From assembly GCA_035524965.1 (NCBI GenBank), contig DATLFH010000082.1, positions 18,989 to 82,988 of the forward strand: a stretch of DNA of 64,000 bases, given 5' to 3'. The translations under genes and the position numbers were made by a program. The notes beneath the pieces were generated by a model. The model made no database searches. It was not told where the DNA came from and saw only the letters and a list, made by a program, of their open reading frames with translations. Shown one piece after another: positions 9,005 to 42,095 of the stretch (positions are counted from its first letter, which is position 1; each line of letters starts with the position of its first letter). Source of the DNA: Gemmatimonadota bacterium (GTDB taxonomy: Bacteria > Gemmatimonadota > Gemmatimonadetes > JACCXV01 > JAHWKZ01).

Positions 9005-9916
9005 CTAGTCGGCGATGGCGTCGGGAAAGATATACTTCAGCGGATTCACCGGCCGCCCATTCTCGTGCACCTCGTAGTGCACGTGTGGAGCCACCGAGAA
9101 GCCCGTCGATCCGACCAGGGCGATCACATCCCCGCGCTGGACCCCCTCCCCGGACCTGACGACGACCCGCGAAGCGTGCGAGTACGCCGTCGTGACGCCG
9201 TGGCCATGATCGATCACGACGTAGTTCCCGTGGCCGTTCTCCCAGCCCGCCTTGAGGATCCTTCCCGCCGCCGTCGCCACGATCGGGTTGCCCCGCCGTG
9301 AAGAGATGTCGATCCCGTAATGCGGCCGAACGTCATGGAAGATGGGGTGCCGGCGGTGGTGCGAGAAGGTGCTGGAGAGGAAGCCGGAGGCGGGCCAGAT
9401 CGACGGAGTGGCCGCGAAACGGGCCTTCTTGTCGACGATCGACTTTCGAACGTCGTCCATGCTGCTGGCCAGGAGCTCGCTGCGCTTCAGCAGCATGTCG
9501 AGCGAGGTCGCCATCGAACCCACCCGCCCGTCGATATCCCCGTCGACATCCCCATCCACGAGGAGAGGGTGGTCGGGGCCGCCGACCCCGATCGCCTGGA
9601 CCTCCACGGGCATCGGCGGCAGGTCGGCCACCAGCCTGAGCTCCTCCTCCCGGTCGAGCAGCGATTCCATTTCCTGACCCAGCGTGGCGACCCGGCCTTC
9701 TAGCGCGGAGATCTCACTCTGCAGCCGGGCATCCTCGACGGCCGCGCCCGTACCCCGACCCGCGTCCAGAGCCAACGCCGCGGCTCCAACGGCTAGGGCC
9801 AGCGCCCCGGCCCCGACCGTGGAGAGACCGAGTACGGTTCGGCGGCAGAAGCGGACCGACCTCACGTTGCTGTTCTCATGTGGAATGTACAATAGCGTAC
9901 CGATTCGATCTGACAC
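9005..9916 (-). CDS. M23 family metallopeptidase (LytM domain) with N-terminal coiled coil
   Basis: HYGIDI (HxxxD) and PHVHYEV (HxH) catalytic motifs. The start could be further downstream (GTG). Confidence 0.75.
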   Translation of the reverse strand: MSDRIGTLLYIPHENSNVRSVRFCRRTVLGLSTVGAGALALAVGAAALALDAGRGTGAAVEDARLQSEISALEGRVATLGQEMESLLDREEELRLVADLPPMPVEVQAIGVGGPDHPLLVDGDVDGDIDGRVGSMATSLDMLLKRSELLASSMDDVRKSIVDKKARFAATPSIWPASGFLSSTFSHHRRHPIFHDVRPHYGIDISSRRGNPIVATAAGRILKAGWENGHGNYVVIDHGHGVTTAYSHASRVVVRSGEGVQRGDVIALVGSTGFSVAPHVHYEVHENGRPVNPLKYIFPDAIAD

Positions 9917-14432: not shown

Positions 14433-15671
14433 TCACCTCGATCTCAGCCAACCGATCGGGTCGACGGCTCTGCCCCCCTGCCGGATCTCGAAGTGGAGCT
14501 TCGGGCCGACCAGGCTCCCCGACTCGCCCACCGTCCCGACGGCCTGCCCTTTCGCGACCGGATCGCCGACCCCGAGGTGGGCACGGTCGAGATGAGCGTA
14601 GAGCGAGTAGTGGCCGCCGTCGTGGTCGACGATGACCATCAACCCGTAACCGCCGTTCCAGTCGGCGTAGGCGACCTCGCCGGATTCGACCGCTCTCACC
14701 GGCGTGCCGCGCGGCGCCTGGATGTCGACGCCGTTGTTGATGACCTCGGTGTTGTAGACCGGGTGCCGCGCACGACCGAAACGGCTGATGATGCGTCCTT
14801 CAACCGGCCAGTCGAGCGCGCCGAAGTCGCCGGTCAGCGTGGAGGCGGCTGGATCGGGCGCCTCGCGGCCGGCCGCCGCAGCCCGCCGCCGGGCCTCGGC
14901 CTCGCGCTCGGCCCTCCTGCGCTCGAGAACCGCCAGCAGCTCTCGGATCTTCTCGGTCTCCGCCTCCAGCGCCTCGGCCGCCTGGAGCTGCTCCGAACGT
15001 TCGTCCTTGACCCGCGAGAGGAGCCGCTCGCGGTCGCGCTCGGCCTCGGAGAGCGAACGCACCTGCTCGACCCGCACATTCCGGGTCTCCGAGAGATCGG
15101 CACGCGTCGCCTCGAGCCGGCTGCGGTCGGCCCGGATGCGGGCCTCCAGCAGGGCGATCTCCTCGACGAGCCGATTATCCTGCTCGGCGATGATACGCAA
15201 ATATTTGTAGCGGCTCAGCGCCTCCGCGAACGAGTCCGAGCGCAGCAGGATCTGGAAGGCTCCGAACTTACCGAGCTTGTAGATCGACCGGAGCCGCCGG
15301 CCCAGGATCTGGCGCTTGACCGTGAGCAGGTCCTGTGCCTGCGCGAGATCGCGGATGACGTCCTCGATCCGATTCCCCTGAGACTCGATCTCGACGTCGA
15401 GGGTCTCGATCAGATGCTCGGTCACCCCGAGCTCACGTTCGACCTGACGCAGGTCGCCAAGAACGCTTCTCTCGCGCCGGCCGAGTCGCGCCGCTTCCTC
15501 CCGCCGCTCCTGGATTTCCCGCTGGAGCGCCTCGAGCCGCTCCCGCTGGGACTCTACCTCCGCATCCTCCTGCGCGCGCCCCGCCGAGGGCGCGAGCACG
15601 CCCGCCGCGAGGAGCGCGGCGATGGCCACCGCCTCCCGGGCCCGGATGGAGGAACGACCGGCCGGCCGCAT
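14433..15671 (-). CDS. envC: EnvC-like murein hydrolase activator (signal peptide, long coiled coil, degenerate LytM/M23 domain)
   Basis: The C-terminal LytM domain has HxxxD replaced by NNGVDI and only one His in the HxH position (KLHFE). Lies immediately downstream of ftsX with an 8-nt gap. Confidence 0.7.
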
Positions 15672-15679
15672 CCAGCCTG

Positions 15680-16537
15680 TCACCACTTCCTGAGAAGCCG
15701 CCGAAGCGTGGCCAGCGATGCGATCGCCCCCAGCGCGCCGCCCACTACGACTCCGATTACGAGCTGGACCGGCGTGTAGAACTCGAGCGTCACCACCCGG
15801 CTCTCGATTGCGGTGAAGGTCACGGTCAGGAGTACCAGGGCAACCAGCGCCCCGATCACCCCCTTGGCGAAGCCCTCCATGACGAACGGCTGCGCGATGA
15901 ACACCGGCGTCGCCCCGACCATCTTCATGATCGCGATCTCTTCCTCGCGAGCCACCAGGACGAGGTTGATCGTAGCTCCGATCGACACGAATGCGATGGT
16001 CCCGAAGATCGCTCCCACGACGAGCCCGAGGAAGACCGACAGTCCCTGCAGGAAGTCGAGCTTCTGGACCCACTCCTCGCCGTATTTGATCTCCTCGACG
16101 AATGCGAAGCGGGCCACCCGCGTCGCGACTTCGCGGACCTGCGGATTTCGTCGATGCCCCGGCTTGAGCGCGATCTCGACGGACGCCGGCAGCGGGTTCA
16201 CTTCGAGGTCCTCGTAGAGCTCGTTGTACTCCCCCATGTCCGCGCGTGCGCGGGCGAGGGCGTCGTCCTTCGAGACGTACATGACCGAGTCGACCTCGGG
16301 GTACTCCGTCACCTCGCGCATCAGGGACGCGCTCTCGGCCGGCTCGACGGAATCCCTCAGATAGGCGATCACCTCGACCCGCTCTTCGACCTCCTGCAGT
16401 ACGCGCTCGATGTTGAGCCACACGAGCCCGAAGACCGAAAGGGTGTAGAGCGCGAACCCGATCGTGATGATCGAAAGCGCGGTGAGGAGCGGGGCTCGGC
16501 GGAAGGCGAAGAAAGCTTCCCGCGTCTTGTATCTCAT
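15680..16537 (-). CDS. ftsX: cell division permease FtsX
   Basis: Four-TM ABC-permease-like topology with a large periplasmic loop. Adjacent to ftsE. Confidence 0.8.
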   Translation of the reverse strand: MRYKTREAFFAFRRAPLLTALSIITIGFALYTLSVFGLVWLNIERVLQEVEERVEVIAYLRDSVEPAESASLMREVTEYPEVDSVMYVSKDDALARARADMGEYNELYEDLEVNPLPASVEIALKPGHRRNPQVREVATRVARFAFVEEIKYGEEWVQKLDFLQGLSVFLGLVVGAIFGTIAFVSIGATINLVLVAREEEIAIMKMVGATPVFIAQPFVMEGFAKGVIGALVALVLLTVTFTAIESRVVTLEFYTPVQLVIGVVVGGALGAIASLATLRRLLRKW

Positions 16538-16546
16538 ACTACGCGG

Positions 16547-36539: not shown

Positions 36540-36983
36540 GTGGAGACGAGAACCGAGGGGGCGGCCGCCCGCGGGGCGGGCGAGGCGGGCGGCAGGCTCC
36601 ACGTCCGGATCATCACCCCCGAGCGGATCGCCTACGAGGGCGGGGCCGACGGGGTCGTGGCGACCGCCTACGACGGCGAGTTCGGGATCCTACCCCGCCA
36701 CGCGCCGATGATGGTCGTCCTTGGGATCGGCGAGTTCCGGCTCCGGCACGGCGACCGCTACGAGTGGTTCGCGATCGGCGAGGGGTTTCTGCACGTGCTG
36801 GACGACGTCGTCACGGTCCTAACCCCCTACGCCGAGTCGGCCCGCGAGATCGGCGTCGAGACCGCCCGCCGGCTCGAGATGACCGCCGCCGAGAACCCCC
36901 TCCTCCATGGGACGATCCTGGGGGAGGAGCAGCGCCGACGCCTCGGCGCGATCCGCGAGCGGGTGGCCAGGAAGGCCCGCTAA
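36540..36983 (+). CDS. atpC: F0F1 ATP synthase subunit epsilon (about 20-aa N-terminal extension)
   Basis: Epsilon core starts around LHVRIITPE. ATG at 36540 gives a Gly/Ala-rich extension. Confidence 0.8.
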   Translation: METRTEGAAARGAGEAGGRLHVRIITPERIAYEGGADGVVATAYDGEFGILPRHAPMMVVLGIGEFRLRHGDRYEWFAIGEGFLHVLDDVVTVLTPYAESAREIGVETARRLEMTAAENPLLHGTILGEEQRRRLGAIRERVARKAR

Positions 36984-37134
36984 TTCCGGCGGTCCAGCTC
37001 CAGCCTCAGCCCCGGGATACAAATGTGGATAGATGTGGAAAATTTGAGGCGCCGTCCCGTTTACTACCTTGCAATGTGTTACTATGAAATGACTTAGCAT
37101 GCAGATGGCCGAATCCGCGTCACCCCCCGCCAAT

Positions 37135-37644
37135 TCACAAATTTCGGGCGCTCTCGGATTCCTTCTTCAAGGACCGGACGACACTTTCGTCCCTCGTTTC
37201 CGGAACGAGCTCTTCCGGCCCGCGCTCGCCGGAGCCCACCCGCAAGCGGGCCTCGTCGGCCTGTGTGAACTCCATCCGACAGCTCCCCTCGAAGAACACG
37301 CCCGGCTCGATCACGAAGGAGCGGGTCAGGACGTCGCCTTCCAGCCGGGCCCCCTTCTGGAGCTCGACCTGCTCGGTGCCCAGAACCTCCCCCTTGAACC
37401 GCCCGCCGATGACGACCGACCGGCCGCAGGCGGTCCCGCTGAACGAGCCCGCCTGCCCGATGATCAGCGTTTCCCCGACCTCGAGACGCCCCCGGAAGGC
37501 GCCGTCCAACCTGAGCGTGCCCTCGACGCGGGCGGTCCCCTCGCACTCGACCCCCGTCCCCAACAGCGAGCTCAGTCCGTTGCTCGTCCCCTCCCGCCTG
37601 GACATCGTGTCCTCCTCTGGCTCTGGTCTGAATCCCCGGATCAT
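37135..37644 (-). CDS. bactofilin (polymer-forming cytoskeletal protein, DUF583)
   Basis: Repetitive beta-helical pattern (GTLRLDGAFRGRLEVGETLIIGQAGSFSGTACGRSVVIGGRFKGEVLGTEQVELQKGARLEGDVL). ATG overlaps the TGA of the M23 gene. Confidence 0.8.
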   Translation of the reverse strand: MIRGFRPEPEEDTMSRREGTSNGLSSLLGTGVECEGTARVEGTLRLDGAFRGRLEVGETLIIGQAGSFSGTACGRSVVIGGRFKGEVLGTEQVELQKGARLEGDVLTRSFVIEPGVFFEGSCRMEFTQADEARLRVGSGERGPEELVPETRDESVVRSLKKESESARNL

Positions 37645-38450
37645 GGAAGGTAGGGCGCGGGGTCGATCGGCAGCCCGCCTCGACGCACCTCGTAATGGAG
37701 ATGCGGGATGTCGGATCGACCGCTGCTGCCGCTGGAGGCGATCGTCTCGCCGCGCTCCACGGCTTCCCCCCGTTCGACCCGCACGCGCGCATTGTGCGCA
37801 TACATCGTTTCGGTCCCGCCGCCGTGGGACAGGACTACGAAGTGCCCCAGAGCCTGGTCGTACCCCGTCTGCTTCACCGTGCCGGACCCGGTCGCCTGCA
37901 CGGCGGTCCCCGCCGGCGCGGCGATGTCGATCCCGGGGTGGCCGTCGATTCCCGTAAACCGCGCGTGGACCGTCCCCCGGATCGAGAGCGGCCAGCCCGA
38001 GGGGTCAGTCCCGCTTGCCGGCCGGGGCCCCGGCGCGGAGGCGATCGGCTCGATTCGCGCCGCGGAGGCGGTCGGATCGACCCGCGGGGCGGCCGCCGAT
38101 CCGACCGCTATCCCCGTCTCCTCCGTTCCCTTCCGTGGGATCTCAGGCATCGACAGCCCGGCCAGGAGACGAATCTGACGGTACGCCTCCTCGGTCCGCT
38201 CGAGGTTGGCCTGGAGCTCATGGATCTTCTCGTTCTCCGCCGCCAGACGTGCGTTTTCCAGTTCCAGCAGGTCGGTACGGATCGCGCGCGCCGTCAACCG
38301 CCCATATGCCAGGATCGCCGCCCCCGCGAGGAGTCCCACCGCCAACAGGCTGATCCCGGCCGTCCGCAGCCCCCGGTAAGAGAGCCGGAGCCGCCGGACC
38401 CCCCGTTCGTCGTGGGGCACCATCAGCAAGGTCAGGTATTTTTCGCTCAT
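37641..38450 (-). CDS. M23 family metallopeptidase with N-terminal TM and coiled coil
   Basis: HPGIDI (HxxxD) and PHLHYEV (HxH) motifs, intact and apparently catalytic. ATGA overlap with parB upstream and bactofilin downstream. Confidence 0.75.
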   Translation of the reverse strand: MSEKYLTLLMVPHDERGVRRLRLSYRGLRTAGISLLAVGLLAGAAILAYGRLTARAIRTDLLELENARLAAENEKIHELQANLERTEEAYRQIRLLAGLSMPEIPRKGTEETGIAVGSAAAPRVDPTASAARIEPIASAPGPRPASGTDPSGWPLSIRGTVHARFTGIDGHPGIDIAAPAGTAVQATGSGTVKQTGYDQALGHFVVLSHGGGTETMYAHNARVRVERGEAVERGETIASSGSSGRSDIPHLHYEVRRGGLPIDPAPYLP

Positions 38451-39322
38451 CGGGAAACGCGCTGGAGCCTCTCGACGATCCGCTCGAGATCCTCGAAGGA
38501 GTAGAACGCGACCTCGATCCGGCCCCTCCCCCTGGCCGTTGCACGAATCGTGACGCGGGTTCCGAGCTGCCGTTGCAGGTCCTCCTCCATCCTCTGGCGC
38601 TCGAGATCCTGCGACCTTGCGGCTGCGGGCCGTTTCCCGCCCCGGTCGCTGTTTTCCCGCCGAACGAGGCGCTCCGTCTGGCGGACTGACAACCCCCCCC
38701 GGGACGCCTTCCGGGCCAGCGCGACGAGGCGGCGCCGGTCGGCGAGGCCGAGCAAGGCCCTCCCGTGTCCCGCGCTCAGCGCCCGTTGACGGATCATCGC
38801 CCGCACTTCCTCGGACAGGTCGAGGAGCCGGAGCGCATTCGCGATCGCCGGCCGGCTCTTTCCGACCCGCTCGGCCACGTCGCCCTGGGTCAGGTCGAAC
38901 TCCTGGATCAGCCGTGCATACCCGGCCGCTTCCTCGATCGGATCCAGGTCCTCGCGCTGCAGGTTCTCGATGAGGGCGAACTCCAGCAGCTCGCGATCGT
39001 CCACCTCACGCACGAGCGCCGGCACTTCCGCCAGCCCCGACAGGCGCGCGGCGCGCCACCGCCGTTCCCCCGAGACGAGCTCATACTCCCCATCCTCGCG
39101 CGGCATCACGATCACGGGCTGCAGGACTCCGACTTGGGCGATCGATGCGGCGAGCTCGGCGAGCCCCTCGTCGTCGAACGCCCCACGGGGCTGGAACCGG
39201 TTGGGAACGATCCGCGAGACATCGATCTGCTCGACGCCCCTCTCGGCACCCCGTGCGGCTTCGACCGCCGACTCGCCTAGCAGGGCGCCCAAGCCCTTTC
39301 CGAGTCGCTTTCTCGAGCTCAC
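38447..39322 (-). CDS. parB: chromosome partitioning protein ParB
   Basis: ParB box (GERRWRAA), HTH and C-terminal dimerisation region. GTG start overlaps the parA TGA. Confidence 0.9.
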
Positions 39323-40272
39323 TGGGCGATCAGCTCCTCCGCGAGATTCATGTAACCCACCGCGCCGGCCGACAGGATATCGTAGAGGATGACGGGCTTT
39401 CCGAAGCTCGGCGCCTCGGAGAGCCGCACATTACGGGGAATGACGGTATCGTACACTTTCTCGCCGAAATACTCAACCGCCTCCTCCTCCACCTGCCGGG
39501 CCAGGTTGAGGCGCGCGTCGTACATCGTGAGCAGGACGCCTTCGATGGAGAGTCGCGGGTTGAGCTTCTTCTGGACGATGCGGATCGTGCCCAGAAGCTG
39601 CGAGAGCCCTTCCAGGGCGTAGTATTCGCACTGGATCGGTATGAGGACGGAGTCGACCGCCGTCAAGGCGTTGACCGTCAGCAGTCCGAGCGAGGGGGGG
39701 CAGTCGACGAAGATGAAGTCGTACCCGCTCCGGTGGCCATCGAGCGCGGCCTCGAGGCGGTGCTCGCGCCCGATCGCGCTGACCAGCTCGACCTCGGCTC
39801 CGAAGAGATCGACGTTGGCGGGAGCGAGGTCGAGGAACGCGATCGAAGTCGGCAGGATCGCCTCGGCGAGGGGGACGTCGTTGACGATGACGTCGTAGAC
39901 GCTGGTCCGCAGCGACTCCTTGGCGATCCCAAGCCCGCTCGAGGCGTTCCCCTGCGGGTCCAGATCGATGAGGAGGGTTCGTTTCTCGGCCGCGGCCAGG
40001 CAGGCGGCAAGGTTGACCGCGGTCGTCGTCTTGCCGACTCCCCCCTTCTGGTTGGCGATCGCGATGACGCGGGCGCTCGGAGAAGCTACGCGAATTTCCG
40101 CCGGTGCTGTTTCACGTGAAACGTCCGGGGGCGAGGCGGATGAATCGGGCCGCCCGGCATCCGCCCGCGTGACGGGCGGATCGGCGGCGAAAACCCGATC
40201 CAGCTCGTCCCCGTCCCTCCGCACGGGCGCCGGTCCATCCTTCCCCCGTTCCCGCCCGCGACCCTTCGTCAT
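39319..40272 (-). CDS. parA: chromosome partitioning ATPase ParA/Soj (with Arg-rich N-terminal extension)
   Basis: Deviant Walker A ([18 protein letters not shown]). The first in-frame canonical start is ATG at 40272; no ATG/GTG/TTG lies closer to the Walker A. The 969-aa ORF in the track is a read-through artefact. Confidence 0.8.
40108..40123. promoter_or_regulatory. parS centromere-like site (TGTTTCACGTGAAACG)
   Basis: 15/16 match to the TGTTTCACGTGAAACA consensus. It is palindromic and the only such site in the window. It lies in the parA 5' region. Confidence 0.7.
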
Positions 40273-40424
40273 CGAGCCCCGGCGGGGGGTCGACCCGGCA
40301 GGTCGAACGCGAGTCTCCCCGCTCGGCGAGTGGTCCGTCGTCGTACTATCCTCGAGGAAAAAGGTCGGCGTCGCCCGCTCTCCAAAACCCGCAATGTGCG
40401 CGACCCCTCCCGGAACCGCAAGCT

Positions 40425-42095
40425 TCAGCCGGGTGTCGCCCCAGATGCCGCTTCGGCGGCTTCCCTCTGTACGGACCGGTGAAGCCACCATTGTTGAATA
40501 AATGTGAGCAGATTCGAGAAGGTATAGTAAAGCACAAGACCCGCGGCCAGGGTCAGAAAGACGAACGTCAGGACGATCGGCATCAGGTACGTCATCGCCG
40601 CCATCCGTGGATCGGTCGCGGTCAGCTTGGACGAAGCCATCATCGTAAGCCCCATCAGGATCGGCAGGATGTAGAGCGGGTCCGGCTGGGAAAGATCCGG
40701 CAGCCAGAGGAACGCCTGACCGCGGAACTCGATGGTACCCTGGAACACGAAGAAGAGAGCGAAAAGGATCGGCATCGGAATCAGGTTCGGGAGGCAGCCT
40801 CCCAGCGGGTTGACCTTCTTCTCCCGGTAGAGCCGCATCGTCTCCTGCTGCATCCGTTGCGGATCGTTCTTGTATTGGTCGCGGAGCTGCTGGATTTCCG
40901 GCTGGAGCTCCTGCATCGCGCGGATCGAGTGATACGATTTCGTGGTCAGCGGCCACATCACGAGCCGCACGAGGAGGCCGAAGACGATGAGCACGATCCC
41001 ATAGCTGGGGATGAACTGGTGGAGCCAGAGCATCACGATCACGATCCCCTTGGCGAACGGCGTGATCATCCACCGGATCCAGGACCAGCCGTATTCGTTG
41101 ACGTCGTCGAGACCTTCGTTCAGGGTCGCCAGCCGGCGATACTCCTGCGGGCCGAGGTAGATCCGGTACGCCCCCTTGCCGGCTTCGATCGGCGAGCCGA
41201 CGATGATCTCGAAGGACGGAAGGGTGTCGCTGGCGACGCCGGCGATCGTCGTCGCGGAGAGCGGCGGACCCTGAGGCGGGGCGAGGACCATCGCCAGGAA
41301 GTACTTGTTCCGCAGCCCCGCCCAATCGATCGGCCCGCCGAGCGCCAGGGCCTCGCCGCCATCGACGTCCTTCGCCTGCCGGGTCACGATCTCGCCCCCC
41401 ACCCGGGCCACCGCCCGAAGCTGGCCATAGTCCTCGCGGGGGTTCTTCTCGTTGGATTGCAGCCGGGGCGCGATCCCGGTCACCAGGACGCCGTCGACCG
41501 GGGTGCCGAGATCGAGCTGGTAGTCGACCGCGTAATCCTCGGGATCGAACCGGTAGCTCTGCACGATCCGCCCGCCGTCCAGGTCGGCGGTGAGCGTCAA
41601 CGTCCGCGCGGAATCGCCCTCGACCAGTCGGATCGACGAGGGGCTGGCAACGAAGTCGAGCGAGTGGATCGGGACCCGCCGGTCGTCCAGGTCGGCCGCC
41701 CGGCGGAGGAAATCGGCATCGGGGGGAACCAGCTCCACCGGACCGGGAGCGGTGAAGGACGGGTACCGAATCAGGGAGGCCTGCCGGATCCCGCCTCCCC
41801 GGGGATCGATCGAAAGGCGGTAGAGCGGGGTTTCCACGATGACCGCTGCCGGACGGACGGACGGCGGCCCCGTCTCGGGCATCCCGTCCACCGGTTCCGC
41901 GGGCAGACCGGCTCCCGGCGGCTGGAGGGCCGGCGTTTCCCGGGCCTCCCGCCCGACGGGGCGGCCGGGCGCGGTCGTGTCCGCCGGCGCCACGGGCTCC
42001 GGGGGTGGGGTCATCCGGCTGTACCACCACTGGCTCGCCACCAGAACGACCGCCATCAGGACGAAGGCGAGGAGGACCCGCTTCTGATCCGTCAT
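40425..42095 (-). CDS. yidC: membrane protein insertase YidC
   Basis: N-terminal TM, large periplasmic domain and C-terminal 5-TM core ([15 protein letters not shown]). Confidence 0.9.

Follow-up and report, generated by a model that had tools for sequence, protein, structure and literature searches.

A parAB operon near the replication origin of a Gemmatimonadota bacterium is likely extended at its 3′ end by a known morphogenetic module, a bactofilin gene together with an LmdC-type M23 peptidase gene, and co-expressed with it. The locus lies in a 64,000-nucleotide (nt) stretch of assembly GCA_035524965.1 (contig DATLFH010000082.1), here called the window, in which four consecutive minus-strand open reading frames (ORFs) occupy positions 37135-40272, in the origin neighbourhood of a genome of ~68% GC. 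An earlier note made by a model from the sequence had read these ORFs as parA, parB, an M23 peptidase gene and a bactofilin gene, and Pfam confirmed all four, including PF01551 and PF04519. From the upstream to the downstream end of the cluster the genes are:

39319..40272, minus strand: parA, Soj-type deviant Walker-A ATPase, 317 amino acids (aa) from the ATG at 40272 (AAA_31, CbiA)
38447..39322, minus strand: parB, 291 aa, GTG start overlapping the parA stop (ParB_N, HTH_ParB, ParB_C)
37641..38450, minus strand: candidate LmdC-type M23 DD-endopeptidase, 269 aa, ATG overlapping the parB stop (PF01551)
37135..37605, minus strand: bactofilin, 156 aa from the ATG at 37605, the longest ORF reaching to 37644 (PF04519)

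ParA matched AAA_31 (3.3e-66) and CbiA (4e-31) from aa 68 onwards and contains the motif KGGVGKTT, and ParB matched ParB_N (4.7e-34), HTH_ParB (6e-37), the dimerisation domain ParB_C (1.7e-11) and TIGR00180 (1.5e-55) and contains the motif GERRWRA. The bactofilin covered 97 of 98 positions of PF04519 (1.4e-22), and its sequence matches in the PDB included 2n3d (“Bactofilin A”, 1.8e-10) and 6ria (“bactofilin”, 2.1e-09). In an NCBIfam scan none of the four proteins matched an equivalog at its cut-off; the matches were at the domain level only, and the bactofilin had none.

The product of the third gene carries the complete architecture of LmdC, which was characterized as a bitopic DD-endopeptidase consisting of a short cytoplasmic tail, a transmembrane (TM) segment, a coiled coil and an M23 domain, and which binds the bactofilin BacA through a conserved cytoplasmic β-hairpin; its gene neighbours a bactofilin gene in 226 species spread over many phyla (Pöhl et al. 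2024, eLife, PMC10945521). The Peptidase_M23 domain (PF01551, 1.8e-30) spans aa 170-264, and the full zinc-binding and catalytic set, H171-x3-D175, H219 and H250-x-H252, is intact and invariant in an alignment of 27 homologues, which agrees with the suggestion that the enzyme is active. Conserved in the same 27 homologues is the N-terminal segment LTLLVVPHDE..VRR.RLSYR. An NCBI entry that comes from a metagenome-assembled genome of Gemmatimonadota matches the M23 protein with 100% identity. The TM and coiled-coil segments described from the sequence were recovered as well: hydropathy has a single TM peak at aa 30-48 (Kyte-Doolittle 2.12), and in the AlphaFold2 model of the protein, with a predicted local distance difference test score (pLDDT) of 85.9, the TM segment and the coiled coil form one unbroken helix at aa 25-97 (pLDDT above 90), of which the coiled-coil stretch LELENARLAAENEKIHELQANLERTEEAYRQIR is conserved among the homologues. 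Ahead of this helix, in an N-terminal tail of net positive charge (7 K/R vs 3 D/E), the model predicts a cytoplasmic β-hairpin with strands at aa 5-10 and 19-24 (pLDDT ~83); behind it follow a disordered linker (aa 111-141) and the M23 domain (aa 150-269). The cytoplasmic part amounts to only ~29 residues and holds neither a ParB-like nor any other extra Pfam domain. A hairpin-like motif, made up of a hydrophobic strand, a P/turn and an R-x-hydrophobic-R strand, is also found in bactofilin-adjacent M23 proteins of Negativicutes, Clostridia, Paenibacillus, Thiomonas and Chitinophagaceae. The gene itself adjoins the bactofilin gene, separated by a 35-nt spacer (or overlapping it by 4 nt), and this adjacency is kept in 20 four-gene loci and in ~12 loci without parAB in their 5-kb flanks. 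Because every architectural feature of LmdC is present, the protein is, as judged from sequence and model, a member of the known LmdC family standing beside its known bactofilin partner, and not a new adaptor.

As in the BacA-LmdC systems of Hyphomonas neptunium and Rhodospirillum rubrum, a bactofilin gene thus lies beside the gene of a bitopic M23 peptidase with a hairpin tail and all zinc ligands, at a very short intergenic distance that suggests one operon. Unlike these systems, the pair in the window follows directly on parAB, lmdC and parB sharing 4 nt; the periplasmic part of the peptidase is shorter and has one coiled-coil helix instead of three predicted regions; the bactofilin of the window clade lacks the MF-x-K N-terminus; and activity and binding are here only predicted. 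A second relative is the csd1-csd2-ccmA cluster of Helicobacter pylori, in which M23 genes likewise stand beside a bactofilin gene (ccmA) and which supplied the best structural match, 5j1l_C, a chain of the Csd1-Csd2 dimer (Foldseek, 2e-11); in contrast to the window, it is not linked to parAB. The way in which CcmA acts together with Csd1 in H. pylori has been described as possibly indirect, via regulation of Csd1 stability.

The window also encodes a second LmdC-like M23 protein (9005-9916, minus strand, 303 aa), which is 34% identical to the parB-linked one. The two have the same N-terminal motif (here MSDRIGTLLYIPHENSNVRSVRF), and the second protein, too, contains a coiled coil and a TM segment and has its HxxxD/HxH motifs intact. 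Its gene stands beside genes for an MlaD-like protein and an M16 peptidase, with no bactofilin gene next to it. Both LmdC-like proteins might use the single bactofilin, in an arrangement rather like that of Csd1 and Csd2 in H. pylori. The minus strand holds a third M23 ORF, inside 14436-16538.

The four genes are closely packed and look like one operon. Read directly from the sequence, the parA/parB junction is caGTGAgc (39322/39319) and the parB/M23 junction cgATGAgc (38450/38447), so that both 4-nt overlaps are real, whereas a third one claimed for M23/bactofilin is probably a 35-nt spacer. In a comparison of 20 independent four-gene loci, for which the candidate start codon nearest each upstream stop was taken, 14 loci offered a start at −4 at the parA/parB junction and nine offered one at parB/M23, these nine all coming from Gemmatimonadota or relatives grouping with them. 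The parB/M23 spacer measures 2-70 nt in most of the remaining loci, the exceptions being L021 (~160 nt) and the Calditrichota locus with ~1 kb between the two genes (L020, 4009-5007), where the four-gene order is otherwise kept; start candidates at M23/bactofilin span −1 to about +100 nt. Since tight packing is kept across the 20 loci, the overlaps at parA/parB and parB/M23 are not an assembly artefact, a concern that had been raised with the original description. No junction is more common in bacterial operons than a 4-nt overlap of the ATGA or GTGA type, which on its own says little. A sigma-70 promoter scan of 36900-40600 gave no promoter-like site, a scan that is uninformative for this phylum. 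The two intrinsic-terminator-like matches in the same interval are at chance level, neither of them between genes, and none was found on the coding strand inside the cluster; the 181 nt 3′ of the bactofilin stop fold into less structure than their shuffles (z = +1.65), and no terminator was identified in them.

With respect to the third junction, the ccATGAtc overlap at 37644/37641 exists only with the first ATG of the bactofilin ORF. A second ATG follows at 37605, thirteen codons further in, and is preceded by a ribosome-binding site:

37611..37617, minus strand: Shine-Dalgarno-like GAGGAGG, 5 nt before the ATG at 37605, read directly

The closest bactofilin orthologues, those of loci L001 and L007, begin with MSKRETVNGGLNSLLGTGV, which aligns with MSRREGTSNGLSSLLGTGV of the window from the second ATG, and the L001 frame opens just four codons ahead of the aligned Met. 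The GAGGAGG site, this alignment and the short L001 frame together place the bactofilin start most likely at 37605, which leaves a 35-nt spacer and gives the gene its own ribosome-binding site; the 4-nt overlap is probably an artefact of taking the longest ORF.

To follow the gene order across genomes, we searched a single genome of each GTDB species with an M23 alignment and then examined the 80 loci returned with profiles for ParA, ParB, M23 and bactofilin. The order parA-parB-M23-bactofilin was present in 12 loci of Gemmatimonadota and in metagenome-assembled genomes (MAGs) of Zixibacteria, Calditrichota and “Cytophagia” (Bacteroidota) as well as in three other bacteria, so the M23/bactofilin pair is syntenic with parAB in other genomes, the co-conservation on which the earlier note had made its proposal depend. 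In L001, whose M23 protein is 47% identical, the flanks are those of the window, with yidC upstream and the atp operon downstream, and in L002 and L004 (37% identical) the four genes are kept with gidA or MerR upstream and NIF3 downstream. M23-bactofilin pairs without parAB in their 5-kb flanks occur in Bacillota, Alpha- and Betaproteobacteria and Chitinophagaceae. Remoter M23 homologues with 34-35% identity (P0094 and P0098) have neither parAB nor a bactofilin gene nearby, hence the synteny is specific to a clade and not general to similar M23 proteins. All parAB-linked M23 proteins fall into one clade of a neighbour-joining tree of 91 M23 proteins computed without support values, which is suggestive of a single ancient fusion of parAB with M23-bactofilin that has since been retained. 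A looser association with the origin region was seen in the Negativicutes MAG L006 (1-7356), where parB lies 5 kb upstream of DUF4446-M23-bactofilin; it concerns the same module in genomes of the Bacillota type.

Approached from the parB side, the association with bactofilins is wider. Among 80 metagenomic loci picked by similarity to the ParB of the window, a biased sample without phylogenetic correction, 46 had enough sequence downstream of parB; there, a bactofilin gene followed directly in 10 loci and M23-bactofilin in three, so that about a quarter (13 of 46) carried a bactofilin gene, and 33 had neither. This indicates that parB-bactofilin adjacency is common well beyond Gemmatimonadota. 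The loci in which parA-parB is followed by a short bactofilin gene and no M23 gene are L093, L094, L097, L099, L101, L108, L116, L117, L139 and L148; in L093 the parA-parB-bactofilin locus contains a 4-nt overlap and genes for ATP synthase subunits come next. Weak “M23” profile matches (E ~1e-6) after parB in loci from the human gut were discarded, as they reflect similarity to the non-catalytic N-terminal part of the profile and no M23 domain is present. In these loci (L154, 4298-4846, plus strand, and similarly L098, L106, L110 and L159-L166) the gene of a 182-aa protein starts 3 nt after parB. The protein has an N-terminal tail in the cytoplasm, a single TM segment and a coiled coil; no Pfam family reaches its cut-off, and the similarity to LmdC-like proteins is weak (E ~1e-6) and confined to their N-terminal, non-catalytic half.

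That a parAB operon may end in a shape-related bactofilin gene is already documented by the loci of Myxococcus xanthus and Bdellovibrio bacteriovorus. In M. xanthus, bacM lies immediately 3′ of parAB, while bacNOP and padC make up an operon of their own (Lin et al. 2017, PMC5703909), so the statement that BacNOP are encoded beside parAB had named the wrong bactofilin genes. According to the passage in which Iniesta (PMC3899335) reports Koch et al. (2011), parA, parB, bacM and MXAN_7474, a putative lipoprotein gene, are co-transcribed, and BacM affects shape and is dispensable for segregation. In B. bacteriovorus the bactofilin gene bd3904 follows parA-parB. The cluster in the window resembles these loci in having a bactofilin gene downstream of the chromosomal parAB and in consisting of four genes near the origin; it differs from both by the LmdC-type M23 gene between parB and the bactofilin gene. 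None of the papers searched describes a gene cluster that unites parB with M23 and bactofilin genes, and in Pöhl et al. parAB comes up nowhere but in the list of references (PMC10945521). The two pairings, bactofilin with LmdC-type M23 and parAB with bactofilin (Myxococcus, Bdellovibrio), are thus published, and the earlier interpretation, which had presented the M23 hydrolase as sitting in the position of a PadC-like adaptor in an undescribed arrangement, overstated its novelty, since the pair is the published LmdC-BacA module; the underlying observation is largely correct, except for one junction and the position of parS. New here are the merging of both associations in one packed four-gene unit and its retention over Gemmatimonadota, Zixibacteria, Calditrichota and at least one Bacteroidota MAG despite differing neighbours.

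The position of parS was read from a single site:

40108..40123, no strand assigned: parS-like palindrome TGTTTCACGTGAAACG, 1 mismatch to the consensus

Even when up to 3 mismatches were allowed, this was the only parS-like site in the 64 kb, against 0.04 expected by chance, and the proposal of a single site stands. It had been placed ~150 bp upstream of the cluster, but it is located within the ORF, 150 nt beyond the proposed parA ATG (40272), and encodes VSRET. The ATPase core of ParA is preceded by an N-terminal extension of ~65 aa (40071-40272), and the extension peptide is conserved through VSRET in L001 and L007. A start of parA 3′ of parS was ruled out, as there is no in-frame ATG, GTG or TTG between parS and the P-loop and the peptide is conserved in these two loci. 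Both observations suggest that ParA of this clade has ~65 additional N-terminal residues and that its gene contains parS. The ParA proteins of other Gemmatimonadota have no extension, and their parS-like sites are non-coding and mostly 114-138 nt upstream of the ATPase core. ParA, ParB and the single parS near oriC constitute a canonical ParABS partition system.

Under the explanation we favour, a parAB operon extended by the bactofilin-LmdC module, gene packing would predict a single transcript for all four genes, starting upstream of or around parS, with parB translationally coupled to parA and lmdC to parB, and the bactofilin would be translated from its own strong ribosome-binding site. 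By homology to BacA-LmdC of Hyphomonas neptunium and Rhodospirillum rubrum, a bactofilin polymer under the cytoplasmic membrane would capture the hairpin tail of the peptidase, so that the DD-endopeptidase would cut peptidoglycan cross-links within a defined zone only, which would shape cell growth. The linkage to parAB would most likely serve co-expression, giving the genes the same timing in the cell cycle, the dosage of a place near the origin and possibly a control that depends on ParB/parS; that the module takes a direct structural part in segregation appears less likely, a ranking that follows from BacM of M. xanthus affecting shape and not segregation.

Several points weigh against this explanation. 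Co-transcription is read from gene spacing, DD-endopeptidase activity and the bactofilin-LmdC interaction are predicted from homology and modelling, and the single M23 clade comes from the neighbour-joining tree mentioned, which has no support values. The linkage has also been kept across phylum-level divergence and changes of the flanks, which goes beyond the convenience of co-expression and leaves room for a tie to segregation. Furthermore, the published membrane-targeting consensus of bactofilins is MFSKKKK (PMC12448750), and an MF-x-K N-terminus is present in Gemmatimonadales orthologues (MAMFTEKG or MFGKEG) and missing from the window clade, whose N-termini are basic and without Phe (MSRREGTSNG in the window, MSKRET in L001 and L007). 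Because of this difference, membrane attachment of the bactofilin may depend on the peptidase.

Such a tie to segregation could take the form of a bactofilin that scaffolds ParABS, with the M23 protein as an adaptor or partner connecting origin segregation to wall remodelling at a pole, bud neck or division site. We regard this as unlikely, although there is a precedent: in M. xanthus bactofilins organise ParA and ParB-parS through PadC (Lin et al. 2017, PMC5703909). That adaptor has a ParB-like domain binding ParA, whereas the middle gene of the window encodes a periplasmic hydrolase whose ~29 cytoplasmic residues correspond to the hairpin that binds bactofilin in LmdC; and bacNOP-padC, the system that positions ParA and ParB-parS, does not lie beside parAB as the bactofilin gene of the window does. 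A profile search of the 64-kb window gave no second ParB-like, ParA-like or bactofilin ORF and no PadC-like protein. In a search for docking tails, the N- and C-terminal tails of the bactofilin were not conserved across parAB-linked orthologues, and no shared docking motif was visible. The physical ParAB-bactofilin tie implied by the earlier note's linking of segregation machinery, cytoskeleton and cell wall is therefore unsupported, given the short hairpin tail with no ParB-like domain and the profile search of the window. Conservation pulls in both directions: the four-gene order in at least four phylum-level lineages with different flanks, the single clade of parAB-linked M23 proteins and the bactofilin genes just 3′ of parB in 13 of the 46 sampled loci speak for such a scaffold, but the M23-bactofilin pair occurs without nearby parAB in many phyla, and the parAB-linked BacM of M. 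xanthus is dispensable for segregation (PMC3899335).

A broader version, which we likewise rate as unlikely, is that a bactofilin-LmdC patch is functionally coupled to ParABS in Gemmatimonadota and related phyla of the Fibrobacteres-Chlorobi-Bacteroidetes (FCB) group, for example with ParB-parS or ParA captured at, or licensing, the site of endopeptidase action, and that the frequent parB-bactofilin adjacency elsewhere reflects the same unrecognised coupling. If this were true, the segregation of origins would belong to one coordinated module with the remodelling of the wall nearby, as in budding, pole maturation or preparation of the division site.

At the opposite end, the adjacency might be history only, stemming from one insertion of lmdC-bac 3′ of parB in an ancestor of the FCB group that was never broken, with the inserted genes possibly using their own promoters. 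Given a single M23 clade, one ancestral event would suffice, and the gaps of ~1 kb in Calditrichota and ~160 nt in L021, the loci in which a bactofilin gene follows parB directly with no M23 gene (L108, L117) and a simple promoter scan that is uninformative for this phylum all leave space for it. We nevertheless consider it quite improbable, as the four-gene core is still contiguous after both flanks have changed, a start in 4-nt overlap is available at parB/M23 in nine loci, and the very short spacers elsewhere offer little room for independent promoters; in addition, parB-bactofilin adjacency recurs without M23 and is reported in M. xanthus and B. bacteriovorus. That the M23 protein is a non-catalytic amidase activator like EnvC, NlpD or DipM instead of an endopeptidase is very improbable, for although the LytM domains of EnvC and DipM are among its best NCBIfam and structural neighbours, those NCBIfam matches are far below the family cut-offs and express domain-level similarity only, and H171, D175, H219, H250 and H252, which bind the metal or take part in catalysis, are all present and invariant.

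If the linkage is only regulatory, as the favoured co-expression of parAB with the bactofilin-LmdC module would have it, the locus is a routine operon variant; a new mechanism is not demonstrated by it in any case. As a testable lead from comparative genomics, it raises the question whether wall remodelling guided by bactofilin is systematically timed or positioned by the segregation operon. The type genus of Gemmatimonadota is named for its budding-like division, and the LmdC-BacA module controls budding in Hyphomonas. The string “Gemmatimon-” does not occur in the text of nine supplementary files of Pöhl et al., including the list of 226 species with the cluster (PMC10945521), and the module is here extended to a phylum absent from that text.

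The neighbours of the four-gene cluster are:

ending at 36983, plus strand: atpA, atpG, atpD and atpC, beside the bactofilin gene
40425-42095, minus strand: yidC, followed by yidD, rnpA and rpmH (minus strand)
from 42935, plus strand: dnaA, ~2.7 kb beyond parA, past yidC, yidD, rnpA and rpmH

Directly upstream of dnaA there is no DnaA box at up to 1 mismatch. Two tandem DnaA-box-like 9-mers, CTATCCACA and TTTTCCACA (minus strand), with 1 mismatch each and 1 nt apart, are located at 37024-37042, where atpC and the bactofilin gene converge on a relatively AT-rich spacer (54.7% GC); the whole 64-kb window contains only four such matches.

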